DNA of 64,000 nt from positions 18,732 to 82,731 of the forward strand of contig CAYSUJ010000004.1 of the NCBI GenBank assembly GCA_964434285.1. Direction: 5' to 3'. Below the pieces are notes generated by a model. It made no database searches. It was not told the origin of the DNA and saw nothing but the letters and a program-made list of their open reading frames with translations. Position numbers and translations under genes: made by a program. Positions 3,925-49,306 of the stretch are shown in pieces. The stretch comes from an uncultured Candidatus Saccharibacteria bacterium. Lineage in GTDB: Bacteria; Patescibacteriota; Minisyncoccia; Phycocordibacterales; UBA2100. The number at the start of each line of letters is the position of its first letter. The first letter of the stretch is position 1.

Positions 3925-5940
<2,016 letters not shown>

Positions 5941-5968
5941 TTATCGCACGGAGGCTGCCTACACCACC

Positions 5969-6445
5969 CTAGTAGGAGAGTTCGACGGAGCGCTGGAGAG
6001 CCCGGTTCGACACATCAATTTCGGAGCAGGCCGTCGAAAAACCATCGGCCTCAATGACTGTAGATCCATTAATCGTGTCTTTTTCAACAGCCACACGTGC
6101 ACATAAACCATTTGGCTCATACTCAAAGGACATGGTATAGACGGGTTGCCCTGGCGGCGGCGTTGCTGGCGTGATTGAAAGTGCGTCGCCATCACACGTC
6201 GGAGTCCCCCCTGGCGAGGTCGAGCTAAAGTACCCAAAACGCATATCCCAGTACAGCGCACATTCCGCTGCAGAATCGGCAACATAAAACGCGTACTGTG
6301 AACTACGCCCGAGCGACGAGAGAATAATCTGTTTTTGAGCAATGGAGAATACTGATATACCAAGCGCGAGCACGAGGGATGCAACGAGTGCAGCGAGCAG
6401 AATGGTAAATCCGCGGTTACTCTGTTCCCGTAGAGAATGGCTCAT
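5969..6445 (-). CDS. pseudopilin-like protein (N-terminal hydrophobic pilin-type helix)
   Basis: N-terminus NRGFTILLAALVASLVLALGISVF. Overlaps the next pilin-like gene by 4 bp. Confidence 0.45.
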   Translation of the reverse strand: MSHSLREQSNRGFTILLAALVASLVLALGISVFSIAQKQIILSSLGRSSQYAFYVADSAAECALYWDMRFGYFSSTSPGGTPTCDGDALSITPATPPPGQPVYTMSFEYEPNGLCARVAVEKDTINGSTVIEADGFSTACSEIDVSNRALQRSVELSY

Positions 6446-7065
6446 ACATTGTCATCGACCCATCGATAGAGATTTTCATAAATCGTGATTGTCCGTGGCT
6501 GCGACGTTCCTGCGTCCCACGAAATTGTAACCTCGATACGAATTTCATCTTGCGTGCCAGGAACGTAGGCAACATTCACGGTGCGACGATATGGCGAGTC
6601 ATCCCACCCGGCTTCATATCCGTACAATTCGCCATTTGTCTGGAGTAGCGGACACTGACCCGAGCACGTGGTAATCACGTTATTCCGAGTATCGATAACA
6701 AATGGTGTGCCAATCGGAATCCCGCACAGCAGTGTAACGGGAGAGCAACTTGCGTCCGGACTACTGAGCGATATGCGCAGAACATTACCATCACGAATCG
6801 CCCGAACCGTCTCTATTGCTTCTTGTGCTAGATTAAATGCGATTACCTGATCGCGCGCATAGTATGACGCAGAGAGTGATTGCATGGTGAGCGACATAGG
6901 CGCCACAATGGCAACAGTCAGAATAACGATGGCAACCATTGTCTCGATGAGGGTCATTCCATGAGTAGCTTTCAGCTGTGGGCTGCCAGCTTTCAGGAAA
7001 TATAAAAAGAAACCCCTGATCGCATCCTGGAAGGTGGAAGCTGGACACTGGGAGCTATTTTTCAT
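6442..7065 (-). CDS. type IV pilin-like / pseudopilin
   Basis: Prepilin motif G|MTLIETMVAIVILTVAIV. Confidence 0.55.
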   Translation of the reverse strand: MKNSSQCPASTFQDAIRGFFLYFLKAGSPQLKATHGMTLIETMVAIVILTVAIVAPMSLTMQSLSASYYARDQVIAFNLAQEAIETVRAIRDGNVLRISLSSPDASCSPVTLLCGIPIGTPFVIDTRNNVITTCSGQCPLLQTNGELYGYEAGWDDSPYRRTVNVAYVPGTQDEIRIEVTISWDAGTSQPRTITIYENLYRWVDDNV

Positions 7066-9700: not shown

Positions 9701-10189
9701 TTATGGCTGCACACAAAAACGATTGTTCGTGTTGCCCTCGCCACCGTCAGCACAGTTGATTGTCCCAACAGTCCCGTCGATATCCTGTGCAGTGATTGCT
9801 AGCTCCATATTTGCGGCAAGCACGTAGTTTGAGCACTTGACTGTAGGCGGGTTTGCTGTGCATGCGGCATTTGAAGCGCCAAGTTCATCGTAAGAATATG
9901 CATATGTAGAATCATTTATAGGATCAACAGGAAGCACGGAAATAGCACCGGCGGTCGTTAATGCGGTCAGACTAGCTGGATAGGATTGATTTATATCGTA
10001 ATAGAGTTCCAGCGCAAGCTGAAGTTGCTTGACATCGGAAACACGACGCGCATCACGTCCTTTTTTTCTCGCACTGTTAAGCGAAGCAAGAACGACTGAC
10101 GAAAGAATACCGATTATGGCAATAACGACAAGAAGTTCAATAAGAGTAAAACCACGTGATGTTCCCTTTTTCATACGTTCATTCATCAT
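9701..10189 (-). CDS. pilA: type IV major pilin, tandem paralog
   Basis: The first ~60 aa after the leader are identical to the neighbouring pilin. The DNA has diverged (about 80% identity), and the C-terminal domain differs. Confidence 0.8.
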   Translation of the reverse strand: MMNERMKKGTSRGFTLIELLVVIAIIGILSSVVLASLNSARKKGRDARRVSDVKQLQLALELYYDINQSYPASLTALTTAGAISVLPVDPINDSTYAYSYDELGASNAACTANPPTVKCSNYVLAANMELAITAQDIDGTVGTINCADGGEGNTNNRFCVQP

Positions 10190-10234
10190 ACTTCCAGTTT
10201 GATAATGAGAAAGACTGTGGTGTGGATATCGCGC

Positions 10235-11440
10235 TTAGATACTGCCCGCAATGTTGTAGATCGGCACGAGGACTGACGCGAGAAGCACGGCGACACCGAC
10301 CGCGAGTGCCACGATCATGATCGGTTCGATCAAGGAAACGAGTGTGTCGACGGCGTTATTAACTTCCCTCCGATAGAAGCGCGCAATAGACTCGAGAATT
10401 GGACCCATGTTACCCGTCTCTTCGCCAATCTTGATCATCGCAACCATAATGCCCGGCATTTCAGGATGTTTGCGAAACGCTTCAGAGACCGTCATGCCAC
10501 CCTTAACGTCTGAAGCGACGCTCTGCAAAGCCTGCTCATACGTTGGATCTTCTACAACCGTGCCGGTAATCTCTAAACCACGCAGCATCTGGATACCACT
10601 CTTGAGCATGGTCGACAGGTTATCGGCAATACGAGAGAGAAACAATTTACGATAGATTCCTCCGATAATAGGAACCTGCAGGCGCGCCTTGGAGAAGAAA
10701 TATTTGCCCGACTCTGTTTTTATATACCTGTAGAAAAAAACCCCGGCAATGCCAAGGAGTGCTCCCCAAAGTAACGAATAGTTGGCAAGCCCATTACTGA
10801 TACCAATGACAATTTTGGTATAGAGCGGAATGTCTTGCCCAACCTCTTCGAGCATGACTGCAAGACGCGGAATCACCAAGGTCATCATGAGAAACATGAC
10901 GATAAGGAATGTGCTGATGATGAATGCCGGATAGATGAGCGCATTCTTCGCCTTCGAGGTTATCTCGTAATTGCGTTCGAGATAGTCGGCAAGAAAGAGA
11001 AATGTTTCATCAAGCTTTCCAGCCTCTTCACCCGCGCGCACCATGTTGACATAGAAATTTGAGAACACCTCGGGGTGGCGCGACATGGCGGCAGAAATTG
11101 CGGAGCCCGCTTGGATATCGGCAGCAATTGCAGAGAGCTTCGCAGCAAGCTGCGGAGTTCGCGCTTCGGCTGCAAGAAGTTGAAAAGCGCGGAGAGCAGA
11201 AACTTGTGCCTCAAAAAGCGTCGTCATCTGCCGACTCAGCATTACAATGTCGCTCCCCTTAATGCCTGAAAAGAGTTGGATATTAGTCCCGAGGGAGATC
11301 TTCTGCTCGAGTGGATCTATCGAGGCAATAATGAGACCGCGGCGCTGCAAGGACGCAATTGCCACATCCATGTTCACAGCGTCAATCTGACCACTGCGAT
11401 CTGCTCCCTGCTCGTCAACTGCTTTGTAATTAAAAAGCAT
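10235..11440 (-). CDS. pilC: type IV pilus platform protein (GspF/PilC family)
   Basis: 401 aa with two GspF-type repeats and three transmembrane segments. Confidence 0.85.
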   Translation of the reverse strand: MLFNYKAVDEQGADRSGQIDAVNMDVAIASLQRRGLIIASIDPLEQKISLGTNIQLFSGIKGSDIVMLSRQMTTLFEAQVSALRAFQLLAAEARTPQLAAKLSAIAADIQAGSAISAAMSRHPEVFSNFYVNMVRAGEEAGKLDETFLFLADYLERNYEITSKAKNALIYPAFIISTFLIVMFLMMTLVIPRLAVMLEEVGQDIPLYTKIVIGISNGLANYSLLWGALLGIAGVFFYRYIKTESGKYFFSKARLQVPIIGGIYRKLFLSRIADNLSTMLKSGIQMLRGLEITGTVVEDPTYEQALQSVASDVKGGMTVSEAFRKHPEMPGIMVAMIKIGEETGNMGPILESIARFYRREVNNAVDTLVSLIEPIMIVALAVGVAVLLASVLVPIYNIAGSI

Positions 11441-11446
11441 ACGTTC

Positions 11447-12535
11447 CTAGAGAAGCTTTTGAAGGAGGTTCGGATTGAGCGAATACTGATACGCGCTCTC
11501 GACGGTTATTTCGCCACGCGTGACGAGTTCTGCAAGCGAACGATTCATATCGATCATGCCCTCTGAAGAAGACGTCTCGATGACCGTATTAATTTCATGG
11601 GTGCGCTTCTCTCGAATAAGGTTTGCTATCGCCTTGTTGTTGATGAGGAGTTCGTATGCCGGAATAAGACCGCCGGAAATGCGCGGAATGAGGCGCTGAC
11701 TGAAAATGCCAGCAAGCGAGGAGCCAAGCTGGATGCGGATCTGGTCCTGTTGGTTTGCCGGGAAGGTATCGATGATACGGTCAATCGTCTGCGCGGCATT
11801 ATTGGTATGAAGTGTCGAGAAGACAAGGTGACCCGTTTCAGCAGCAGTGACTGCCGCTGACATGGTTTCGTGTCCACGCATTTCTCCGACAAGGATGACG
11901 TCAACGTCCTGACGGAATGCAGATACGAGCGCTGAGGCAAAATCGCGCGTGTCAATCAAAACTTCACGCTGATCAACAAGTGAACGCTTCGGCTCAAAAA
12001 TGTATTCGATCGGATCTTCGATTGTCACAATATGCTCCATGCGTTCGGTATTAATGAGTTCGACCATTGAGGCAAGTGTCGTCGTTTTCCCCTGACCCAC
12101 GGGTCCTACCACCAAGAAAAATCCTTGGGTTTTACGTGCAAACGTTGTCAAAATATCCGGAAGATTTAACTCTTCGATCGTTTTAATCTGCTTTGGGATG
12201 AGACGGAGCGCGATACCGACAGCGCCGCGCTGAAAGAACGCATTTCCGCGAAAGCGATTACCGTCCTGTGTCTGGTAGGCAAAGTCAACTTCAAGTGTCG
12301 AGAGAAATCTTCCCTGCTGATCTTTATTTAAAAGCACCTTCGCAAACGCCATCGTATCCTCGCCTGTCAAAACTGGCTCTTTGAGCATTGGTGTCAGAGA
12401 GCCAGATACGCGAATCGTAGGGTGCGCACCAGTCGAGAAGTGGAGGTCTGATCCTCCTTCGTGCACCAAAACGTTAATGTACTTTTTGAGTGTTGCCTCG
12501 TAATCCCCCATTCCCATGAGGACATTGTAGCGCAT
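11447..12535 (-). CDS. pilT: type IV pilus retraction ATPase (PilT-like; from length, could be a short PilB-type)
   Basis: 362 aa. Walker A GPVGQGKTTT, Asp box, Walker B, and the LHTN His box. Confidence 0.75.
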   Translation of the reverse strand: MRYNVLMGMGDYEATLKKYINVLVHEGGSDLHFSTGAHPTIRVSGSLTPMLKEPVLTGEDTMAFAKVLLNKDQQGRFLSTLEVDFAYQTQDGNRFRGNAFFQRGAVGIALRLIPKQIKTIEELNLPDILTTFARKTQGFFLVVGPVGQGKTTTLASMVELINTERMEHIVTIEDPIEYIFEPKRSLVDQREVLIDTRDFASALVSAFRQDVDVILVGEMRGHETMSAAVTAAETGHLVFSTLHTNNAAQTIDRIIDTFPANQQDQIRIQLGSSLAGIFSQRLIPRISGGLIPAYELLINNKAIANLIREKRTHEINTVIETSSSEGMIDMNRSLAELVTRGEITVESAYQYSLNPNLLQKLL

Positions 12536-12562
12536 TTTTTTACGCGACTGTTTCTATCCACA

Positions 12563-13387
12563 CTAACGCTCAATGCGAAGATATGTTTTGTCGTCCGGAT
12601 GCCACGAACGCTTATTTTCATCTTCTAAGCGCTGCTGGAGCGCATCTGTTTCCGCCAACGTTCCCGCAAGCGCCTCGGGATAATAACCATCCGAGGCCAG
12701 AATGATTCCCGAAGCGTCTTCGGGAACCGGAATGTACTCAATGTGATGCACGGTTTCCCCCGTCATAACCCCGTATCCTCGAGACGAGAAGGGGTTATTT
12801 CTATGGTGTGGCTGCCACTCGCGCGTAAGGCGATGCATCCGACGCTGTATCTGCAGGTCACTAGCAGCATCCGTCTCGCTTACACCTCTTTCTCGAGCAC
12901 GCTTAAGAAGCGCTTGACGCACTACTTCTTTGTCCGCATCTACTGCGAGGCCGGGATTCACTCCTTCCCAGGTATCGATTGTGTTACTTCTGAAAACATA
13001 GGAGCAATCACCGACGCGCACTATGGTGTTCCACTTAGGAAAATACGCGACAAATACAAAACTCGGCATTCCCGAGTGAGTATATCTCGCGAGGGTGTCC
13101 CTCATACACGCAGCAATAAACGGAACAACCTCATTCACATGATCAAGTCGCGCGGCATCGTGAAGAGCCTCGATCCCTATTTGCACCGCGAACTGTCCCA
13201 GCGTCAGACCTTCTATGCGCTCTGATAAATCCCCTGATGAAACTCCGTCCAGTACAGCGAAACACTCGGGTAGTGCCACAAAGCGATCTTCCGAATATGT
13301 ACGTCCGGGCTTCGGATAACTACCCCATTCTGCAACGCGCCAGGGACGTATGTTCTCTGCACCAGGAGGGGAAGGTACCTTTTCCAT
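12563..13387 (-). CDS. PP2C-family Ser/Thr phosphatase-like protein
   Basis: Matches PP2C motifs: FAVLDGVSSG, RVGDCSYVF and ILASDGYY. Confidence 0.5.
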   Translation of the reverse strand: MEKVPSPPGAENIRPWRVAEWGSYPKPGRTYSEDRFVALPECFAVLDGVSSGDLSERIEGLTLGQFAVQIGIEALHDAARLDHVNEVVPFIAACMRDTLARYTHSGMPSFVFVAYFPKWNTIVRVGDCSYVFRSNTIDTWEGVNPGLAVDADKEVVRQALLKRARERGVSETDAASDLQIQRRMHRLTREWQPHHRNNPFSSRGYGVMTGETVHHIEYIPVPEDASGIILASDGYYPEALAGTLAETDALQQRLEDENKRSWHPDDKTYLRIER

Positions 13388-13450
13388 GCTGAGAGCGTAT
13401 CATAGAGAACCCATAGCGGTCATGCGCCCGAAAAAGCTATAGTAGTAGTC

Positions 13451-14452
13451 ATGCAGAGCCCGGAAACAATTTTAGAGTCATTTCCGATAGGGACACCCCG
13501 CGCGATTGCACCCCTGGGAAATGGCCGCATTCATACCACACTCCTCGTTACAACCGGGGACACTGAATATGTTTTACAGAAAGTAGGCTCACTCTTCGGA
13601 AAAACGGCACATGACATTGACGCTATAACCACCCATCTCGCAACAAAGTGTCTTATGACGTCGCGTCTCATACGAACACACAGCGGTACCCTAACCGTCC
13701 CTGACGGCGAGTGCGCGTGGCGTCTTATGACATTCATACCCGGAAGTACTATCGAAGAGAATCCGAGCCCGACCCAGGCGGCGAGTGGAGCATCGTTTGT
13801 GGCAAGATTCCACACGGCACTCCTCGATTACACTGATCCGTTTGCATATTGCATACCCGGATACCGCGATACGCGAGCAGATTTTGCACGCCTACGAGAA
13901 GTATCGGAGCACTATCGCGGCTCTGAGAAATATCAGATATGCAACCCGATTGCAGAAGACATACATGCGCGAACCGCTCGTCTCACAGAGAACATTGCGT
14001 CACTGCCATTGCGCGTCTGCCACGGAGATCTAAAGCTCAACAACCTTCGCTTCGACGCTACCCAAACGAACGCACTCGCCCTCATCGACCTCGACACGGT
14101 AGGACACTACCCACTCCCGCTTGAGCTCGGCGATATGCTCCGCAGTTTTTGCCGCACCGAACAGAACACCATCAACACCGAACTCTGGCACACGACGATG
14201 ACTTCATATCGCGAAGCTGCTCTGTTCTTGACTGACGAAGAATGGCGACTGATTCCCGATGGATTTGTCGAAATCACCCTCTCTCTCGCTTCCCGCTACC
14301 TCACCGATGCTTATGAAGAAACATGGTTCAAACACGACGCCTCGTACCCCTCGCTCTTTGAACAAAATTTTGCGCGGGCACGAGCATCACTCGATCTTAT
14401 CGATAGCTTTATGCAAGATGAAGCACAGGTACAATCTGTGCATTCCTCATGA
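13451..14452 (+). CDS. phosphotransferase-family (APH/choline-kinase-like) protein
   Basis: Catalytic loop VCHGDLKLNNLRF plus LIDLD. Confidence 0.5.
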   Translation: MQSPETILESFPIGTPRAIAPLGNGRIHTTLLVTTGDTEYVLQKVGSLFGKTAHDIDAITTHLATKCLMTSRLIRTHSGTLTVPDGECAWRLMTFIPGSTIEENPSPTQAASGASFVARFHTALLDYTDPFAYCIPGYRDTRADFARLREVSEHYRGSEKYQICNPIAEDIHARTARLTENIASLPLRVCHGDLKLNNLRFDATQTNALALIDLDTVGHYPLPLELGDMLRSFCRTEQNTINTELWHTTMTSYREAALFLTDEEWRLIPDGFVEITLSLASRYLTDAYEETWFKHDASYPSLFEQNFARARASLDLIDSFMQDEAQVQSVHSS

Positions 14453-15542: not shown

Positions 15543-16847
15543 ATGCAAATCGGTGCAGCGGTTGTTTCTTTATCCCTTCTTTCCATAGGGGGGTTTATTG
15601 CGCTTGTACCTCTCGTTGCTTATGCAGCATGTGAGCGCCCGGGGTCGGTTGAGATCACAGCCGAAACACGTCCTACTGCAAAAGCTGCTGGTGTGCCCGA
15701 TTTTTGTACACATTGGATCCCGGGGCAGCCATATATAGGGCAAAACGTTGGAGAGGCAAAAGCATATCTCAACAGTTTACCGAAGCGCCCACTCTCGAAT
15801 TGCGCTCCTCCAGATCAGAACAATATTACTCGACTCAATGACACTTTTGCAACTTGTGCGGCGCAATTCCTAAAGGCATACACGGAACGATATGGTGCCA
15901 TATACATCACGTCAGCATTCCGTGACGCTACGCCTGGATCTGCACAGAATGGAAGCGGGAAAAGCGCAAATCAATGTGCGGGTGGTGTGAATGGTTCGAA
16001 CCACAGCATCGGTATCGCGATGGATATTAACCCTGCAAACGATAGTTTGTATCCAACACTTTGGAAATTTGCTTCAGATAATCCCCAATTTGGGATCTGC
16101 TTTCCGCATCAGTATGGTGGAGCAAACACGACAGGGCTACGAGATCGACCACACATGGTTCTTGCGGGCCCTGTAAATGGGAGATGTGGAGGTGAGTGCA
16201 TGGCCTGTCGCAATCAAGGAGTAACCACCTCTTGTTCCGGCACTCCAACAAATATACGAACAACTCCCATCCAAACTTCGCCCACTGCTGGAATTGCCCA
16301 ATCTCTCCGTAATTGGCTCTCACCACAACAACCACAAACCCAACCGCAACAAGTCATTACTCCAACAGTCACACAGCCAGCGCCGGTTTCGCAAAACCCA
16401 CTCACCGTATTCCAAGAGCCGCAAACGATTGGTGGGGTTTCAGGACAACTCACCATGGCACTTGCAGCAACGAATACGAATTCCGTCGCCGACCATCTCG
16501 AAATGCTCGCCTTCCCTACCACAACGCAGACAAGTGGCTCCGCAACGACTGTTCCGCTAGTAATCTCTGGGCAACAGGCAGCACAACTCGCGGCGGGACA
16601 GCAAGCAACTGCGACGCCAACGTACACTGGCCAAGGAGATGTCTCACCATCACAAAGTACGTTCATCTCGGGCGACCTTAGTTGGCAAGGAGCGCCACAA
16701 CCACCGCAGCAGCTCACTAGCTTCCAAGCAACACTCGCGAACGTGCGTGCCATTCTTGAACGCATCCTCGCGTTCTTAACACCGTTTAATACACGCAATG
16801 CGATCAGGGGTGACGTGGGAGACCAAGAGATCTACATACTCGAATAA
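15543..16847 (+). CDS. secreted LAS/M15-type metallopeptidase-like protein with a Q/P/T-rich tail
   Basis: N-terminal transmembrane/signal segment. Carries ITSAFRD...SNHSIGIAMDI, which resembles the SxHxxGxAxD zinc site of D-Ala-D-Ala peptidases. The C-terminus is low-complexity. Confidence 0.4.
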   Translation: MQIGAAVVSLSLLSIGGFIALVPLVAYAACERPGSVEITAETRPTAKAAGVPDFCTHWIPGQPYIGQNVGEAKAYLNSLPKRPLSNCAPPDQNNITRLNDTFATCAAQFLKAYTERYGAIYITSAFRDATPGSAQNGSGKSANQCAGGVNGSNHSIGIAMDINPANDSLYPTLWKFASDNPQFGICFPHQYGGANTTGLRDRPHMVLAGPVNGRCGGECMACRNQGVTTSCSGTPTNIRTTPIQTSPTAGIAQSLRNWLSPQQPQTQPQQVITPTVTQPAPVSQNPLTVFQEPQTIGGVSGQLTMALAATNTNSVADHLEMLAFPTTTQTSGSATTVPLVISGQQAAQLAAGQQATATPTYTGQGDVSPSQSTFISGDLSWQGAPQPPQQLTSFQATLANVRAILERILAFLTPFNTRNAIRGDVGDQEIYILE

Positions 16848-18451: not shown

Positions 18452-18973
18452 CTACGGTAACGGCACTTGCGCACGCAACCGCTCCCGAATCTCCATGAGC
18501 ATAATCCCGAGCAAGTTTCTCCCGCGCCCATTGCAGACACCCCACAACGTGTCATTCCATGTATTCCCTTCGACGAGATACTTTTCATCTGTTACAAGAA
18601 GCTGCTCAGCAAGATCAGGATTCTCGAATTTCTGCAGCAACAACTCAGCCATAAGCAACACCTTACCGTCATCCCAATCTTCACGAACATACCCATGTTT
18701 TCGCAAAATATCCGATATAACCTTTGCATTGCCTGATGACAATGTAGCATCGGTAAAGATTGTTGATGCGTCGGTTATGCGCCCCAGTCTCCCCCGAATA
18801 CGTAGTGTTTCGTTGATCTCTTCTAGATGCCCACGCGTGACGCCACGAAGAGCTTCAGGCGTGAATTTTTGTGCATGATACGCATGCTCAACAGATGGAT
18901 ACGTATGGCCACCATGGGTAATAGGAACCGCATAGAAATTCGAGAGGAACGTGTGCCGGAATGTATGGCATTC
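18452..18973 (-). CDS. NADAR (YbiA-like) domain ORF with no canonical start; probably the C-terminal part of a frameshifted fusion with the upstream ORF
   Basis: The frame is open from the stop at 18974-18976 and reads ...FLSNFYAVPITHGGHTYPSVEHAYHAQKFTPEAL...WNDTLWGVCNGRGRNLLGIMLMEIRERL. The first ATG, GTG or TTG is at 18742. Confidence 0.6.
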   Translation of the reverse strand, partial: ECHTFRHTFLSNFYAVPITHGGHTYPSVEHAYHAQKFTPEALRGVTRGHLEEINETLRIRGRLGRITDASTIFTDATLSSGNAKVISDILRKHGYVREDWDDGKVLLMAELLLQKFENPDLAEQLLVTDEKYLVEGNTWNDTLWGVCNGRGRNLLGIMLMEIRERLRAQVPLP

Positions 18974-20379
18974 TCATTATCGAGCTTTTCCAAGATTTCT
19001 TGCGTTGGGTGTTCGCACAAAGTGACAAAAGAGCGGTACATCATTCGCTCAGCATCATTCTCGGCACCCTCAAGTCGTCGTCGATATTCCCATGCAAGAC
19101 GCCGCTCTTCGGCGACCTCCTTCAAATCCACCTTAGGGTGCAATGTTCTTGAGATCGGCAGAATATTGACTGCATGAACATACACAAGATTGGATGCCAC
19201 GTGCGTACGATGCTTCGCTTCACTATTGATATCCGTGCGGATCAAGTCTGCTTCGGCAACGGAAACAGTGACACGATCGACATTGTAGAGCTCTGTGAGC
19301 ATATCGTACAAAAGCTGGATCGTGCGTCCCGTTGAAGAATTGTCTTCAACGATGAGAAGGTGCTTATCTCGTATCTTTTCTTCCTTACTGCGGAGAAATT
19401 CGAGGAAACCATCTCTTGTAAACTCGTCAGTGCCAAACGCATCTTTAATTGAGTGCAGCGAGAGCGGGATAAGCACAAACTCAGTCTCGTGATGCCGAAG
19501 TGCTTCATACGCATATTGCTGCGCAAATGCCAATTCGGTGCCTCCTGACGGCAGGCCAATAACCGTGTCGGGCAACGGCTCAACGGTTTGCGCCGTTGCA
19601 TACACCGACGCCGCAATTACCAGAGGATGCCCGGCTTCAGGACGAGTAAAAAACCTCGAAGAAAACACTCCTTCACTGTACTGCTGTTCCACATAGTCAG
19701 TCACCTCTCGAAATGCCTCATGACGTTCAACAACCTTGGAAAAAGCTGAAAAATAGTCTCCGTTTCTCCCGATAAGATGGGCATAATATGCCTGCACAGA
19801 GTGTCGCGCCAGATGAATTGCCGAATCACGCAGCGCGCGATACTCGACGTCATTGAGCCGAAACTTCCCGATCTTTTCCTCTTGAATCAGCGCGTTGAAA
19901 AGAGTGATCGCCGCATTTTTCATGTAATCAAGAGTAGCTGATTGCTCGACGTAATGACTACTTGAAATAGCACCTCCATCGAGGCTCAGTGCGTCAACAG
20001 CGTCATCAAAGTCTCGCCATAATATTTCAAGCTTCTGTCGCACCTCCAATGTCGGATCTATCGAAACGAGATAGTTCGATCCGCGCAAAATGTAGTCAGA
20101 GCCCTTTTTCGCAAATCGCCGTTCAGTGGAGAAAAAACGAGCATAATGGCCTGATGCACGGGGATCGTTCTTGGTTTTAAGGGAGCCGTCGAGTGTGAAA
20201 TTCTTCGGAAAATCTTCAAACTGGAAGATCCCTTTATGTTCTTTAATAACATCCGCCCCCATCGCAAGAGCCATGTTTTGTGTAATTACCCTACGTGATT
20301 CCGCTCCTTCGAGATACTCACCAAACTCCTCTGGGGTGAGGTCGGATTTTGGTATTGAATACAAGGCACGTTCTGGCAC
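18823..20379 (-). CDS. protein with a type I phosphoribosyltransferase-like domain; its last ~50 codons overlap the NADAR frame
   Basis: VIGLPSGGTELAF... and KHLLIVEDNSSTGRTIQLLYDMLTEL (PRPP-binding loop). The C-terminal tail after about aa 468 is junk-like. Confidence 0.5.
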   Translation of the reverse strand: MPERALYSIPKSDLTPEEFGEYLEGAESRRVITQNMALAMGADVIKEHKGIFQFEDFPKNFTLDGSLKTKNDPRASGHYARFFSTERRFAKKGSDYILRGSNYLVSIDPTLEVRQKLEILWRDFDDAVDALSLDGGAISSSHYVEQSATLDYMKNAAITLFNALIQEEKIGKFRLNDVEYRALRDSAIHLARHSVQAYYAHLIGRNGDYFSAFSKVVERHEAFREVTDYVEQQYSEGVFSSRFFTRPEAGHPLVIAASVYATAQTVEPLPDTVIGLPSGGTELAFAQQYAYEALRHHETEFVLIPLSLHSIKDAFGTDEFTRDGFLEFLRSKEEKIRDKHLLIVEDNSSTGRTIQLLYDMLTELYNVDRVTVSVAEADLIRTDINSEAKHRTHVASNLVYVHAVNILPISRTLHPKVDLKEVAEERRLAWEYRRRLEGAENDAERMMYRSFVTLCEHPTQEILEKLDNENAIHSGTRSSRISMRFLLPMVAIRIHLLSMRIMHKNSRLKLFVASRVGI

Positions 20380-20430
20380 ACGCCTATAGTACCACTTGAG
20401 CCCTCACCATTTGAGTGCAGCTTCTCGGTC

Positions 20431-21114
20431 CTACAGAATCACCTCCGCCCCTTTCCCCGTCGCACCCCATCCATCGTGATTTTGGAATACAATGTTTTTC
20501 TTCTTTAACTCCATCACCATTTCAACAAGGCGGCTGACGAGCCTGCGTGGATCGGAATCAAACACGATAAATTCGTTGGGGCGATGCGCCGCGAGCAAGA
20601 CGCTCTTAAGGATTTCGTCGGTTTGCCACGAGCCCTCGAGCACCCCTATCGGGCGCCGGTCTTCAAAGGCGACTGAAAATTCGTTCAAGGTACCTACGCG
20701 CCCCGGGCCAATGATCATGGCGTCTGATGAGCGCACGAAGAGCAGATCTCGCCCAGAGTACCCAAAGCCCGTGTACATAACGATATCCATATAATCAAGG
20801 GGAAGCTTATAGGTCTCCAGATGCTCGCGCTCTGAGGAAGCCGGAGAGAGACCTACGGAGAAGCCGCACTCGTCTTTCGCGCCCATGGCTGCATACATCG
20901 GGAAACCTGTTGTGGCGCCCGTAACGATGATGCCGCCATGGAGCGCGATTTCACGCCCCACCTCTTTCGCTTTCTCGAACGCATCGAGCCCGGCGTGCGT
21001 GGTGTCAGCTGCGCCGGAAACGCCGATCTTCACAACACCATAACCATCGGGAAGACGACAAAAATTACGCGGAACCGCCTGATGATGCGGATGGATCTTT
21101 TTGAGGCGCGTCAT
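20431..21114 (-). CDS. LOG / TIGR00725-family Rossmann-fold protein (lysine-decarboxylase-like)
   Basis: GVSGAADTTHAGLDAFEKAKEVGREIALHGGIIVTGATTGFPMYAAMGA... Confidence 0.55.
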   Translation of the reverse strand: MTRLKKIHPHHQAVPRNFCRLPDGYGVVKIGVSGAADTTHAGLDAFEKAKEVGREIALHGGIIVTGATTGFPMYAAMGAKDECGFSVGLSPASSEREHLETYKLPLDYMDIVMYTGFGYSGRDLLFVRSSDAMIIGPGRVGTLNEFSVAFEDRRPIGVLEGSWQTDEILKSVLLAAHRPNEFIVFDSDPRRLVSRLVEMVMELKKKNIVFQNHDGWGATGKGAEVIL

Positions 21115-21490
21115 GATTCATGATTTTATCACGAAGAAGGACGTGTTTCGCAAGGACATACCCACACAGGCCGCCGAACGAATCCATGATGAGATCAATT
21201 GTCGTATCAAAGGCAAAATTCGCCTCGCGCGGCGAGCCGGCCCATAGTTCGAAAAGTTCCCACCCAAACGCAACACAGGCAAGTAGAACAAAAATTCGCG
21301 TCGCGGTTATATCAATTCTGAGATACAGAAAGAGCACATGTGCCGCAAGCATCGCCCACAGACCCCCAAGAAAATGAACTCCCGTGTCGAGCCAAGGGAA
21401 AAGCCAATACAATGAATAGGTGAGCGCAGCTAAGTGAATCGCACCCAAGCCGATGAGTAGATAGGCCTGTATCAAAAGTAATCGCGGCAT
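21065..21490 (-). CDS. VanZ-like integral membrane protein
   Basis: Four predicted transmembrane helices. The ending DTTIDLIMDSFGGLCGYVLAK resembles VanZ. Confidence 0.35.
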   Translation of the reverse strand: MPRLLLIQAYLLIGLGAIHLAALTYSLYWLFPWLDTGVHFLGGLWAMLAAHVLFLYLRIDITATRIFVLLACVAFGWELFELWAGSPREANFAFDTTIDLIMDSFGGLCGYVLAKHVLLRDKIMNHDAPQKDPSASSGGSA

Positions 21491-22419: not shown

Positions 22420-25218
22420 CTAGTATGTTGGGAAATCGGGCATGGGAGGGGGCGGAGGCGGCGCAAAGCGCTCACGGATCTCCGTTTCAATCTCCTCCCT
22501 ATCGCGGCCGAACGTACGATACGACAATTTCTTGAGAGAATCAACATGCTCAAAACTGAACTGCGGGAGGTTCGCGGTGCGGAGCGTGAAGGGGCGCACC
22601 GGCGTGCCGTTTGAGAGCATGGCAACTGCAGCGGTGCGGTTTTCCTGATTTTCGAGGTCATTACGTGTGAAGACGGGGTGGAACTGCTTCTCGAGAAACT
22701 CGGCATCGGTCGTACCAATGCGGAATGCAACTTTCGTGCCGACGTTACCCACAACGGCATCGCGAATCTTCTCGTCGAGCTGGGCAATGAACTGGTGCGC
22801 GATCGTGAGCGAGAGCTTGTATTTGCGGGCTTCGGAGAGAATGGTTGAGATTGACGGCGTGGCAAAGTTTTGGAACTCATCGATGTAAAGATAAAACGGC
22901 GGGAGTGTGCCACGGGTGTCGACGCGCGAGAACGCCGCCTGGAGGAATTTGGATACGAGCACGAGGCCGAGGAGCGAAGCGTTTCGGTCTCCGAGGCGAC
23001 CCTTAGATAGATTGGCGAGGAATATCTTCTTTTCGTCCATTATTTTTCGGAAATCGAAGGCAGATTTTTGCTGCGCGACGATAGGCCGCATGATGTCGTT
23101 TGCGGAAAAGACGTCGATTTTTGAGGAAATGTAGGGCACGATGTTTTCAAGAGACGCTTCCCCACCCGCGGCTTCCGCAATCTTCGTCCAGAAGTTTACG
23201 ATGACCGGATTTTTGCAACGTGAGAGTTTGAGGCGACGAAACGCGCTGTCGGCCATCACTCGCGGAATCTCGAGAAGGGTGGAACCGCTCGCCTGATCCT
23301 CCACGACGAGTTGCGCAGCGTTCCGGTAGTATTGCTCGAACATCGGGCCAAAGGCATCGGGAACATCCGAATACAGCTTGCGGAAGATGCCATACACCTC
23401 ATCAACGACGAATGTCTTTAATTCCGGACGTGACTCGTCATACTCGAGCATGTTGAGTCCCATCGGGCGCGCCGTGTAGGCTGGGTCGAAATAGATGACG
23501 TCGTTGTAGCGTTCGGGAGGCACTGCAGCTAAAATCTCCTCGATGTCGGTGCCGTGCGGATCAACATAACCCACGCCTTCCCCATTCTGCATGTCCTGAA
23601 TAATCATGTTCTTGAGGATGCCGGTTTTACCCGTACCCGTTTGCCCAATCACATAGCAATGACGGAGGCGATCTTGCGCACCAAAGCGAACTTCGCGCTC
23701 TTCGGCGCCGTACCGATTGATGCCCATCACGATGCCGTCGGGGGCCATGTCGACAGGTGCAGGAGCCTGTTTTGCGTTCGACTTCTTGAGTTCACGCGAG
23801 GTCGTCACACGCTCGGCGGTAAAGTGCACCATCGTCACAATCTCACCAAGCGAGAGCGGAATGGCAGACCCCGCATCGAATGTACGGTAGGTGAATTCCT
23901 GCAAAGGGTTCCCAAATTCGGGCAACCACCCACTGCCCGCTTTCGTAAAACGGAGACGATTTCCTCGTGAATCATCAAACTGATTGAAAGGCGCGATGAG
24001 GTTGTCGAGGAGGATATCTGCACGCTCTTTGTCGGGAGCGGAGGTTACGAGCCGAATGACGGCTGGCACAATACGGCTCTTGATCTTCCTCCCGATCTCT
24101 TCGGTTGCCACTTGGTCGCCCTGCTTCATCATGCGCCCCTTCTCTTCCTCGCGCTCTTTTTCGGACGTTATAACCGACTTCACAACGTCATGCACAAAAT
24201 CACCGAATACCGTCTCGGGCGTGTTAAGGGCCTCACCAATGTGTTTGCCTTTCTCAAGCGCACGGAGAATCTTCTTGTAGTGCTGATTGTACCGCTCACC
24301 TTCCGTGGAAACGACGATTTGGAGCGCCGCACCCTCGCCGTGCTTTGCAATTTTCGCAAATGCCGCGAGAAGCACGTTCATCGGATCGTGTTCGAAGAGT
24401 TCGTAGGTTTTGAGAGGATACGCAGGGTGCTCTGCAAGCGACGCAGTTGCGAGTGCGTGCACGCCGTCGTAATTAAAAATGTTGTAATCGCCGCGAAGTT
24501 CTGAGATGCGCGCATTCGGAAATACAGATGAGATGAGCCGTTCCGCAAGCGCTTGCTTGGTGCGCGGCACGGCGAGGTAGAGCGATGCCTCCTCGGTGCC
24601 CTCGGCAACGGCAATCTCGATAGAAAAGCCCTCGGCAGGAGTGATGAGCGAGAGCAGGCCCGCATAGAGCTGTTCAGAGGACGCGAGCACCTGCTCGAGT
24701 TTCTGTTGGCTCTTTTCCTCGCTCTCGCCGTGCGCCTGGGGGTGGATCTCAAATAACACGAGGTGCAGGGCACGCGAGACACGCTCGGGAGCCGGTAGCC
24801 CTTTCTGCGGCAACCCTTCGGCAATGTAGCGCACGAGGACGCGATGGAGATCGTCCTCGAGGTGCTGATTTTTCATCTTCGCGACAACTGAGAGGGCGTT
24901 TCGGATGCCACGCTCGGCAACTATTTTCAAGAGCTCGTCCATCTGTGTGTCGTGCACCTCAGGCTCAAGCTTCAAGACATGATGTAAGATCTCATGCTCC
25001 GGCATCGCAACCGCCTCGTGCAAGACCGCTTGCGGTGCCACGCCAGCATATTCTTGTATCTCGCGTCGCGCGATGCGCTCACGATCAGGCTGCGCAACGG
25101 CTTCAAGCTCTTTCTCCTTCTCTGCCACGCGTTCACGCAAAAAGCGAAGCTCCTCTTCTGGAGACTTGAACGTGAATGAAGGTGCAATCGCACGCTCCCC
25201 TATCCCGCGCGGCGGCAT
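22420..25218 (-). CDS. FtsK/HerA-superfamily (DUF87-like) P-loop ATPase with a ~460-aa uncharacterised N-terminal region
   Basis: Walker A GQTGTGKTG followed by YVDPHGT (the DPHGEY-like HerA/VirB4-clade signature). Walker B YIDEFQNFA...TIAHQ. The C-terminus ends in a poly-Pro tail. Confidence 0.55.
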   Translation of the reverse strand: MPPRGIGERAIAPSFTFKSPEEELRFLRERVAEKEKELEAVAQPDRERIARREIQEYAGVAPQAVLHEAVAMPEHEILHHVLKLEPEVHDTQMDELLKIVAERGIRNALSVVAKMKNQHLEDDLHRVLVRYIAEGLPQKGLPAPERVSRALHLVLFEIHPQAHGESEEKSQQKLEQVLASSEQLYAGLLSLITPAEGFSIEIAVAEGTEEASLYLAVPRTKQALAERLISSVFPNARISELRGDYNIFNYDGVHALATASLAEHPAYPLKTYELFEHDPMNVLLAAFAKIAKHGEGAALQIVVSTEGERYNQHYKKILRALEKGKHIGEALNTPETVFGDFVHDVVKSVITSEKEREEEKGRMMKQGDQVATEEIGRKIKSRIVPAVIRLVTSAPDKERADILLDNLIAPFNQFDDSRGNRLRFTKAGSGWLPEFGNPLQEFTYRTFDAGSAIPLSLGEIVTMVHFTAERVTTSRELKKSNAKQAPAPVDMAPDGIVMGINRYGAEEREVRFGAQDRLRHCYVIGQTGTGKTGILKNMIIQDMQNGEGVGYVDPHGTDIEEILAAVPPERYNDVIYFDPAYTARPMGLNMLEYDESRPELKTFVVDEVYGIFRKLYSDVPDAFGPMFEQYYRNAAQLVVEDQASGSTLLEIPRVMADSAFRRLKLSRCKNPVIVNFWTKIAEAAGGEASLENIVPYISSKIDVFSANDIMRPIVAQQKSAFDFRKIMDEKKIFLANLSKGRLGDRNASLLGLVLVSKFLQAAFSRVDTRGTLPPFYLYIDEFQNFATPSISTILSEARKYKLSLTIAHQFIAQLDEKIRDAVVGNVGTKVAFRIGTTDAEFLEKQFHPVFTRNDLENQENRTAAVAMLSNGTPVRPFTLRTANLPQFSFEHVDSLKKLSYRTFGRDREEIETEIRERFAPPPPPPMPDFPTY

Positions 25219-47966: not shown

Positions 47967-48566
47967 TCATTTGGGTCGCCTTTTGAGTTCGGTGCCCCAG
48001 ATATCATCCGAGATATCGAGAACGTCCGTGTAGCCATCGCTTCCTGTTCTGAGCTCGTGCGATACATTGTTCTTCGATGAGAAAACGTAGACCTTTTTCC
48101 CTCCGGTGCGGAGATATGAGATGAGTGCAAGAAAATCGGAATCGCCAGTGAAAAATACAGCTGTACCGTAGGTGTCTCGATGGTGCATGGCGTCAATGGT
48201 CATCTCCACGTCCATGTTCCCTTTTTCTTCAATAAGGTCGCCCTCCTCCGCGTGGACGAGAATGCGCTTGAGCTCTTTCTTTCTCACAATAAAACCAAGT
48301 CCTTTCTTCAAGTACGTGTAGAAATTATGCTTCTGCCGCAGGCTATACGAGCGGGTCCCCTCCTTCGGATACGCAGTGTAGAAGAATATCCGGACAACTT
48401 TGGGCGCGAACTTCTTCTGAAGATAGTTCCGCAGTTTCTCGTAATCGAATACTCTCCCTTTTGATTTCTGGGCAGCCCACACATTGGAAGCATCTATAAA
48501 AACAGCCACACTATCCTCCATGAGCTTCATGAAAGAATATGGTACCCCAAAACGAAGAAACGCCAC
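47967..48566 (-). CDS. NYN-domain (LabA-like, PIN-fold) protein
   Basis: VAVFIDASNVW...GNMDVEMTIDAM...VFFTGDSDFLAL. Its GTG start overlaps the HAD stop as TAGTG. Confidence 0.6.
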   Translation of the reverse strand: MAFLRFGVPYSFMKLMEDSVAVFIDASNVWAAQKSKGRVFDYEKLRNYLQKKFAPKVVRIFFYTAYPKEGTRSYSLRQKHNFYTYLKKGLGFIVRKKELKRILVHAEEGDLIEEKGNMDVEMTIDAMHHRDTYGTAVFFTGDSDFLALISYLRTGGKKVYVFSSKNNVSHELRTGSDGYTDVLDISDDIWGTELKRRPK

Positions 48567-49306
48567 TAGATTGCTTGGGATGCGAAATACTCTTCCACCG
48601 CACCTGGAAGTTCGTGGGGATGGTCGATGATTTTGAAGGGATTCCCATTCTCGAGGCGCTGGTGCTCGTGGAAACCCCAGCTGACCCCGATCGCGCCGAC
48701 GCCTGCTGCTGTTGCTTCTCGGATGTCGCCCAGCGTATCGGTAACAAAGAGGCAGTGTTCTGGCGCAAGCTCGTAGCGCTCGAAGAGCATGTGCATCTTT
48801 TCGACTTTGCTCGGGTGGACGTCGTTGCCAAAGACGTCTTCAAAATACTGTGCGGCGTCGTGTTTTTTAAGGAATGACATCACCGGACTTGAGATGTTCG
48901 ATGAGATGATGGCCATGCGATAGTGTGCCGAGAGATCGTGGAGTGCGCGAATGATGCCCGGAAATGGATGCGCACGCTCGAACAGTGGCACATAGTTCTC
49001 CCACCAATCAAGATCGTGGCTGCATTGCGTGTGGTCGCGTTCGTCGTGTGGGAGGCGCGCATCATTGATGTTCCCCTCAAAATAGGAACGGTAGCGCTCT
49101 TCTGTCTCGTACTGGCAGACCTTTCGCGCAGTGCCGTACGCAGCAAAAAAGGAATCAACGATGACACCGTCGAAATCAAAGAATACGCATTTTCTGTCGT
49201 CGCGGGGCACGGCGTAATAGTAGCCGACTGGCCAAAATGGCGCCATTTGATCCAGTAACCGACATAGCTCCCTTGCAGAGCGCAGTATCAAATGAAGAAA
49301 CGCCAC
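48566..49306 (-). CDS. HAD-superfamily hydrolase
   Basis: DxD motif FFDFDGVIVDS. The N-terminal MAFLHL is encoded by the repeated leader element. Confidence 0.6.
   Translation of the reverse strand: MAFLHLILRSARELCRLLDQMAPFWPVGYYYAVPRDDRKCVFFDFDGVIVDSFFAAYGTARKVCQYETEERYRSYFEGNINDARLPHDERDHTQCSHDLDWWENYVPLFERAHPFPGIIRALHDLSAHYRMAIISSNISSPVMSFLKKHDAAQYFEDVFGNDVHPSKVEKMHMLFERYELAPEHCLFVTDTLGDIREATAAGVGAIGVSWGFHEHQRLENGNPFKIIDHPHELPGAVEEYFASQAI

Follow-up and report, generated by a model that had tools for sequence, protein, structure and literature searches.

Does a NADAR reading frame that lacks a start codon belong to the phosphoribosyltransferase (PRTase) gene that runs into it, and if it does, what might the whole protein do? 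The question is raised by a 64,000-nucleotide stretch of DNA (the window) from an uncultured Candidatus Saccharibacteria bacterium (assembly GCA_964434285.1, contig CAYSUJ010000004.1, positions 18,732 to 82,731); positions below are those of the window. An earlier note, made from the sequence alone, had proposed either that a frameshift of 1 nt interrupts a single PRTase-NADAR fusion or that the NADAR domain is initiated at a noncanonical start, and had suggested that the gene could form a module with its LOG-like neighbor. We conclude that 18452..20379 (minus strand) is one gene, a broken copy, 4 nt short, of a rare PRTase-NADAR accessory gene, and that it lies in a variable slot between blocks of housekeeping genes. 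In the reading that we think fairly probable, the break is a recent deletion or an isolated assembly error, not recoding, and the intact protein would have a role in phosphoribosyl-amine metabolism.

The main open reading frame (ORF) of the locus (18823..20379, minus strand) encodes 518 amino acids. The NADAR frame, on the same strand, ends with a stop at 18452 and is open back to 18973 (173 codons), and its first ATG, GTG, or TTG is codon 78 (the TTG at 18742); the earlier note had counted the 77 start-less codons exactly. The length of this run is unexceptional, as it lies at about the 93rd percentile among the window's 224 frames of at least 100 codons. What cannot be put down to chance is the NADAR content of the frame, not the length of its start-less part. 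The start-less frame reads ...FRHTFLSNFYAVPITHGGHTYPSVEHAYHAQKF... and includes FLSNFY...SVEHAYHAQKF, the canonical N-terminal NADAR motifs that the note had recognized there, and the Pfam model for NADAR (PF08719) matches from residue 6 of the frame onwards (70.5 bits versus a cutoff of 35.1, E = 2.6e-19, profile positions 9-163 of 163). Similarity of the 518-residue ORF to its homologs ends after ...LDNENAIH, at about codon 473 (18961-18964), close to the junction at about 18975 given in the note. In the alignment, the start-less frame takes over from the 518-residue ORF exactly at FRHTFLSNFY, and the orthologs are uninterrupted through the junction, where they read ...L(D/N)xxNAI(L/R/Q)(E/S/K/D)FRHTFLSNFY....

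A comparison at the DNA level with the three closest orthologs (loci L052, L053, and L054; L numbers are our labels for loci) places the frameshift at ATA-CA-TTC (18959..18966, minus strand). The window has two bases, CA (18963-18962), where the orthologs have six (CTTGAA, CGATCC, and CTTGAT), and these six sit between the codons for N-A/S-I/V and those for F-R. The offset of the FR.TFLSNFY motif is 0 modulo 3 in all three orthologs and 2 modulo 3 in the window. Thus, the two frames form one gene with a net -1 frameshift; the single fusion that the note proposed is borne out, as is a net shift of 1 nt, although the window is 4 nt short of the three closest orthologs. Because of this shortfall, translation from the GTG at 20379 would yield 518 residues: an intact PRTase followed by a nonsense tail of 45 residues, and no NADAR domain. 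The out-of-frame tail (18823..18958, minus strand; about 45 codons, SGTRSSRISMRF...VGI*) has no homology. If the frameshift were absent, the whole gene (18452..20379, minus strand), from the GTG start at 20379 to the stop codon at 18452-18454, would encode about 642 amino acids. The deposited annotation (P0001) has 483 residues and is 100% identical over 93% of the query that we used to search for homologs, which was the first 473 residues of the 518-residue ORF. It evidently starts at an internal Met (MALAMG...); alignment with the orthologs supports the GTG at 20379 (MPERALYSIPK...) as the likely true start.

The search identified 46 homologs, of which about 40 are single ORFs of 630 to 650 amino acids, most of them with PF00156, PF08719, or both. 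These share their N terminus with the window gene (M..(E/D)YSIPK), and the closest are 64 to 68% identical to the window copy. The earlier note had reasoned that orthologs with separate PRTase and NADAR genes would speak against a fusion; what we found are single in-frame ORFs. The family occurs in Saccharibacteria and other Patescibacteria, Alpha- and Gammaproteobacteria, Chitinophagaceae (Bacteroidota), Acidobacteria (Acidobacteriota), and Actinomycetes, and all 34 of its invariant residues are kept in the window copy. It is a rare accessory gene with a patchy distribution across phyla. No characterized member of the family was found in the literature that we searched (de Souza and Aravind 2012 was outside that search).

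We modeled the rejoined protein with AlphaFold2, using 30 homologs (predicted local distance difference test [pLDDT] score of 92.6, predicted template modeling [pTM] score of 0.91). The pTM of the model points to a defined packing of the domains against one another. The N-terminal region (about residues 1-245; 19645..20379, minus strand) has a small alpha/beta part and then a four-helix bundle, and it could not be assigned to a family; E168, K169, Y180, and Y199 in this region are invariant among the homologs. It is followed by a divergent type I PRTase domain (about residues 246-415; 19135..19644, minus strand), with an intact loop for phosphoribosyl pyrophosphate (PRPP), LLIVEDNSSTGRT, and a GLPSGGTE loop. 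The window copy matches PF00156 over residues 270-362 with 23.1 bits, which is below the cutoff of 26.3, and it does not reach any curated PRTase family cutoff. PF00156 is carried by 38 of 79 relatives of the PRTase module (described below), plus many homologs in precomputed or direct scans; in addition, the modeled domain has the PRTase fold, and its Foldseek matches are HGXPRT and PyrR. The homologs and the predicted structure together support the sub-threshold match. D346, N347, S348, and T353 of this domain are invariant in the family. The PRPP loop fits a pattern of four hydrophobic and two acidic residues followed by xxxTGxT, and it aligns with the loops of the 6-oxopurine PRTases, that is, HGPRT, GpT, and the archaeal purine PRTases; the loop of human HPRT, for comparison, is VLIVEDIIDTGKT. 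The 6-oxopurine PRTases (HGPRT/HGXPRT and archaeal purine PRTases) and PyrR, which were matched in the PDB, share the type I fold and the PRPP loop with the fusion.

A helical linker (about residues 416-472; 18964..19134, minus strand) connects the PRTase to the NADAR domain. It has two long helices (H419-463 in the model) and ends with ...EKLDNENAI, where, in the alignment, in-frame homology to the orthologs stops. The NADAR domain itself (about residues 474-642; 18452..18961, minus strand) is out of frame with the upstream part, and its homology begins with the TTC at 18961. The modeled domain has the YbiA fold. The residues that are invariant in the family are kept (S480, N481, F482, E498, Y501, K505, F506, N606, and D610), as are the motifs SNF, SVEHAY..KF, and YLVEGNTWNDTLWG. 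The marker of the YbiA family is a Glu, not Asp or His, in the last strand (PMC11125620), and the window's NADAR domain has this Glu in ...LVEGN..., which aligns with LVEH of YbiA. However, YbiA of E. coli (COG3236, "riboflavin intermediates N-glycosidase") is a bare domain of about 160 residues, whereas the domain in the window is joined to a PRTase, and its KF motif is followed by an insertion of about 55 residues. In E. coli K-12, ybiA adjoins ybiB, which encodes a predicted PRTase-like DNA-binding protein (PMC11125620). Against TIGR02464, the model for the riboflavin-type N-glycosidase, the NADAR part scores 56 to 62 bits (curated cutoff, 73.7). It also has weak matches to two defense models, PDC-M42C and NF053876 (DS32_2); the latter gives 30 to 33 bits versus a cutoff of 240.

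We also considered whether the break might be functional. In that case, the NADAR domain would be made by programmed -1 frameshifting or by noncanonical initiation, and the gene would give both a PRTase and a PRTase-NADAR protein, or a separate PRTase and NADAR. The NADAR frame is intact and undecayed, and the existence of PRTase-only relatives (445 to 550 residues) and of stand-alone linker-NADAR proteins (as in L019) implies that the halves can work apart. However, the orthologs do not shift frame at this site, neither a slippery heptamer (X_XXY_YYZ) nor a homopolymer run is present at the junction, and the RNA of the 89 nt downstream of it folds no better than shuffled sequence (z = -0.11). 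Noncanonical initiation, the alternative raised in the note, is unlikely as well: the orthologs are unbroken and in frame at the junction, no ATG, GTG, or TTG occurs for 77 codons, and the first canonical start, the TTG at 18742, would give a 96-residue fragment that lacks the SNF and SVEHAY catalytic motifs.

Other broken copies of the gene bear on this question, too. L001 (P0006; GCA_013565675.1, JACCDV010341912.1; 338-2181) has a PRTase-NADAR gene that is 55% identical to the window copy and is also split. We asked whether the two share a frameshift site and rejected this, as the break in L001 is inside the NADAR domain (...VSEESACKK* / MQEINETL...); L001 also lacks about 40 residues of the C-terminal region of the PRTase. 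The copy in L021 (about 9860-11370) has at least four frame changes, and the copy in L060 (about 4670-6580), with a phage-integrase gene 440 nt upstream of it, has at least three. The contigs of L021 and L060 are named in the manner of long-read assemblies, so for these two copies indel errors and pseudogenes are equally likely explanations. Since all of these copies break elsewhere, there is no conserved recoding at the window's site. Judged from these features of the sequence, the window's junction does not appear to be a site of programmed recoding, and we consider a functional split of either kind very unlikely.

This leaves a real mutation or an error in the assembly. The NADAR part of the window copy is 66 to 73% identical to its orthologs, which are 67 to 75% identical to each other. 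The lack of decay in this part suggests a lesion that is either recent or introduced by the assembly. An independent assembly of the same strain was sought in metagenome contigs with two exact-pattern scans, and none was found; a look-up of the deposited protein P0001 was likewise empty, and no read data were found either. A heuristic screen of the window, which combined start-less frames with Pfam matches, did not find any other frameshifted gene; no other start-less frame has homology in its start-less part, and the assembly is therefore not obviously full of indels. The screen did find an NYN-domain ORF (47967-48839, minus strand) with 91 start-less codons upstream, which overlap the preceding ORF (48566-49306). 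Its Pfam match starts only after the first start codon, so we did not count it as a frameshift.

What the intact protein does can be approached by comparison with known systems. DS-32 is an anti-phage system of E. coli, validated by DefensePredictor, in which a PRTase gene is followed by a NADAR gene (PMC13092281 and a preprint). We took the sequences of its PRTase (DS-32A, WP_000097610.1) and its NADAR protein (DS-32B, WP_032260665.1) from the supplement of PMC13092281. The pairing and the order of the domains are the same as in the fusion, the NADAR domain of DS-32B is homologous to that of the fusion (hhalign, 97%), and the experiment on DS-32, though not on the fusion, establishes that these two kinds of domain can function together as a unit. 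However, DS-32 consists of two separate genes, whereas the fusion is one polypeptide with an extra helical N-terminal region of about 245 residues and a linker. A DS-32A-type PRTase in the fusion was considered and rejected: hhalign gives a probability of 3% to the family profile, and DS-32A matches PRTase_III-A of PADLOC (retron type III-A) while the fusion does not. Similarly, the NADAR domain is not of the DS-32B type, given its low score against NF053876. The fusion is therefore an analog of DS-32 and not a member or an ortholog. Because the two PRTases are unrelated, the pairing of PRTase and NADAR seems to have arisen at least twice.

Another system to compare is DarT1-NADAR, where the NADAR likewise has an enzyme for a partner: the partner attaches a ribosyl group to a base, and the NADAR takes it off again (PMC11125620). 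DarT1 differs in being an ADP-ribosyltransferase that uses NAD+, and no such domain was found in the fusion or in the neighborhoods surveyed. Also, the NADARs linked to DarT are of the BC4488 family, whose last strand carries an Asp (PMC11125620), whereas the fusion's NADAR has the Glu of the YbiA type.

The relatives of the PRTase module give more specific hints as to its chemistry. A profile of the helical region and the PRTase domain matched 244 cluster representatives among 1.84 billion. Besides the NADAR fusions and the PRTase-only proteins mentioned above, the module is fused to other domains: among 79 relatives scanned, 10 have a phosphoribosylanthranilate isomerase (PRAI)-like domain at the C terminus, 4 or 5 have an HAD domain at the N terminus, and 1 has a guanylate-kinase-like domain. 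Where the module occurs without NADAR, its neighbors mirror these HAD, PRAI-like, and guanylate-kinase-like fusions found elsewhere in the family. In L057/L058 (5163-7368), an HAD gene lies 53 nt upstream of a stand-alone module; in L059 (5430-8816), a guanylate-kinase-like gene abuts a PRTase-PRAI gene on its upstream side, and Ham1-like and HAD genes lie downstream.

These partners are enzymes of small molecules, namely sugar phosphates and nucleotides, and they point to the handling of an N-(5-phosphoribosyl) compound. PRAI isomerizes N-(5-phosphoribosyl)anthranilate. The substrates of PRAI and of the known NADARs are all ribosylamines of exocyclic amino groups, which suggests that a compound of this kind is what the PRTase forms with PRPP. 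For NADARs, the known substrates are ribosylamino-pyrimidine phosphates and N2-ADP-ribosyl-guanine (PMC11125620). In the mechanism that we propose, the PRTase domain would use PRPP to make an N-(5-phosphoribosyl) compound, most probably at an exocyclic amino group of some base-like acceptor, or would bind such a compound. The C-terminal partner would then carry the product forward (PRAI) or hydrolyze its ribosyl-amine bond (NADAR). The intact fusion might thereby couple the formation and the removal, or the exchange, of a phosphoribosyl-amine in the metabolism of small-molecule nucleotides.

We looked for further hints in the genes around the fusion, using 50 genome loci that were fetched with the family alignment (about 17 of them with a full-length fusion) and the contigs of the three closest orthologs. 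No conserved partner of the fusion gene was found by tblastn, by all-against-all clustering of neighboring ORFs, by phmmer, or in a census with Pfam and PADLOC (113 proteins from 20 loci). The census of these neighborhoods turned up only scattered integrase, Gabija, and type I restriction-modification genes, plus TraG-like genes in L013 and L017.

The main rival to a metabolic role is that the intact protein is a single-chain anti-phage enzyme of the toxin-antitoxin kind, a fused analog of DS-32 or of DarT1-NADAR. The PRTase would phosphoribosylate a target (such as the N2 of guanine in DNA, RNA, or nucleotides) or would drain PRPP, the NADAR would reverse the modification, and the window copy would be an inactivated defense gene. 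The order of the genes in DS-32, which was validated in E. coli, fits this proposal, as does the ability of NADARs to act as antitoxins that reverse the ADP-ribosylation of guanine (PMC11125620). Also consistent with it are the weak matches of the NADAR part to DS32_2 and PDC-M42C and the disruption of four copies, including the window's, each at a different site. However, DS-32A has no detectable kinship to the PRTase module, the NADAR part scores higher with TIGR02464 than with DS32_2, and the partners of related PRTase modules (PRAI, HAD, and guanylate kinase) are domains of a metabolic type. The closest orthologs lie among housekeeping genes, between rpsF-ssb-rpsR and efp-recA or between tig and clpP, and have no defense neighbors, and defense or integrase genes are present in only a few of the 20 neighborhoods surveyed. 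If the PRTase were a toxin, then a copy that had lost NADAR alone should be harmful. Finally, our searches of plasmids, phages, and IMG/VR did not return the fusion: plasmids and phages had relatives of the NADAR part only, and viral contigs had none of the PRTase module. Overall, we rank the handling of small-molecule ribotides first and a fused DS-32-like defense enzyme second, both as suggestions drawn from sequence comparisons; the defense role is possible but doubtful.

Several points nevertheless weigh against the reading that we favor, that is, a broken accessory gene with a role in phosphoribosyl-amine metabolism. The family is rare and patchy across phyla, and the slot that it occupies in the window is variable, both of which fit defense. 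In L015 (4265-11899), from a metagenome-assembled genome (MAG) of Pseudomonadota, the fusion is directly behind an integrase, gajA, and gajB on the same strand. GajA is composed of AAA_15 and OLD TOPRIM domains and GajB is UvrD-like, which makes this the context of a defense island; the Pfam and PADLOC censuses counted two members of the GajA/GajB type, and Gabija was located only in L015. The fusion in L060 also adjoins an integrase. Moreover, the relatives with partner domains are only 17 to 38% identical, and what they imply may not transfer to the subfamily that is fused to NADAR. A PRTase and a glycosidase that act on the same bond would form a futile, PRPP-consuming cycle, which suits defense or a toxin no less than metabolism. 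The assignment of substrates is tentative throughout. As for the lesion, the screen for other frameshifted genes is heuristic, and a real mutation and an assembly error are about equally likely. Because a loss of 4 nt outside a homopolymer is untypical of sequencing error, we lean slightly toward a real deletion.

A bolder form of the defense proposal is that the family would be a counterpart of DarT1-NADAR and DS-32 that runs on PRPP and is complete in one protein. To act against phages or to arrest growth, its type I PRTase would phosphoribosylate guanine at an exocyclic amine, whether in DNA, in RNA, or in the pool of nucleotides, or would burn PRPP, its built-in NADAR would reverse the modification, and the window would hold a copy whose antidote half was cut off by the 4-nt deletion. 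We consider this improbable.

The earlier note had also suggested that the PRTase, NADAR, and LOG-like domains could form a module for processing ADP-ribose or nucleotides; we considered this module with the VanZ-like protein included. The LOG-like neighbor is indeed of this kind: the gene at 20431..21114 (minus strand) encodes a TIGR00725-like protein that belongs to SLOG cluster 4 (SLOG4), with E = 2e-31 and 109.1 bits versus a cutoff of 26.3 for PF18306; its score for TIGR00725, 57.6 bits, is under the cutoff of 106.9. The other neighbor (21065..21490, minus strand) is a small, DUF2238-like membrane protein, and the VanZ-like assignment made in the note is weak: its VanZ match is sub-threshold (17 bits versus a cutoff of 30.1), and its orthologs in two relatives of the window, L055 and L056, are labeled DUF2238. 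All three genes are on the same strand, only 51 nt separate the SLOG4 gene from the fusion gene, and SLOG-NADAR fusions and neighborhoods are known in phages from the literature. However, no homologs of SLOG/LOG, VanZ, or NDK were found within 10 kb on either side of the homologous loci examined (tblastn at 51 loci, clustering, and phmmer with a positive control), and the gene tables of the contigs of the three closest orthologs likewise show none within that distance. The co-occurrence that the note had proposed to look for is thus absent: the fusion gene and the LOG-like gene are not linked at these loci.

Instead, two relatives keep the SLOG4 gene without the fusion. SLOG4 has more than 6,600 homologs at E < 1e-10, versus 46 for the fusion family; 120 listed matches are 71 to 84% identical, apart from one at 99%, and those listed with names are from Paceibacterota, Kaiserbacteria, and Parcubacteria. 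A highly conserved core gene of Parcubacteria/Paceibacterota, SLOG4 has no part in what the fusion gene does. The DUF2238 and SLOG4 genes overlap in all three genomes, by 50 nt in the window, 50 nt in L055 (5613-6684), and 29 nt in L056 (5616-6684), so the conserved partner of SLOG4 is the membrane protein and not the fusion. The overlap suggests that the two genes are translationally coupled, as a conserved pair that is very widespread in Parcubacteria. In L055 and L056, whose SLOG4 proteins are 84% and 76% identical to the window's, the blocks adk-map-x-TraG-like(DUF8128)-ndk-DUF2238-SLOG4 and rplT-(rpmI)-infC are arranged as in the window. Between SLOG4 and rplT, L055 has a methyltransferase-like gene (184 residues) and L056 has an ATP-grasp-like gene (430 residues). 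We considered whether these are kin of the fusion and rejected this, as they were unrelated on comparison. Because the flanking blocks are kept while the content of the slot differs, the fusion gene occupies a variable slot in what is a genome of the Parcubacteria type. The slot does not carry marks of insertion: we found no tRNA gene, meaningful flanking repeats, or Rfam element around it. The SLOG4 and DUF2238/VanZ-like genes belong to the conserved flanking blocks, not to the fusion, and the proposal of a three-gene module for ADP-ribose or nucleotides is unsupported; we give it next to no credence.

Two other features of the surroundings may be mentioned. The flanking block includes a TraG/VirD4-like protein of 932 residues (TraG-D_C; DUF8128 in the orthologs), which is encoded at 22420-25218 (minus strand) in the window, 1933-4740 in L055, and 1950-4724 in L056. 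In the window's lineage, this gene is part of a conserved housekeeping block (map-x-TraG-like-ndk). TraG-like homologs also lie 2 to 8 kb from the fusion in two unrelated MAGs, one of Patescibacteria and one of Acidobacteria (L013, about 18712-20244, and L017, about 12284-13483), and TraG-like is the sole neighbor common to three fusion loci. In addition, two regions of the window, 10235-12535 (minus strand) and 15543-16847 (plus strand), hold type IV pilus genes, PilC-like (T2SSF) and PilT/PilB-like (T2SSE), and a protein of 434 residues without a Pfam match, one half of which is a long, low-complexity region rich in Q, P, and T.

For annotation, our results imply that the PRTase ORF (483 residues as deposited, or 518) and the 96-residue ORF should be merged as one frameshifted gene and that the SLOG4 gene beside it should not be read as a partner. 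The frameshift itself is ordinary: it is one broken accessory gene in a metagenome-assembled genome. The family is of broader interest. DS-32 is the only PRTase-NADAR pair that has been tested; its mechanism is not known, and its PRTase is unrelated to that of the fusion. Roughly 40 proteins, from at least five phyla, that have a PRTase and a NADAR in one chain provide independent "Rosetta stone" evidence that the two domains act on the same molecule. Sequence comparisons indicate that the family is an uncharacterized, fused variant of the PRTase-NADAR pairing, whose PRTase belongs to a lineage of its own with changing partners (NADAR, PRAI-like, HAD, and guanylate-kinase-like). The range of these partners restricts the probable chemistry to N-(5-phosphoribosyl)amines and suggests specific candidate substrates.

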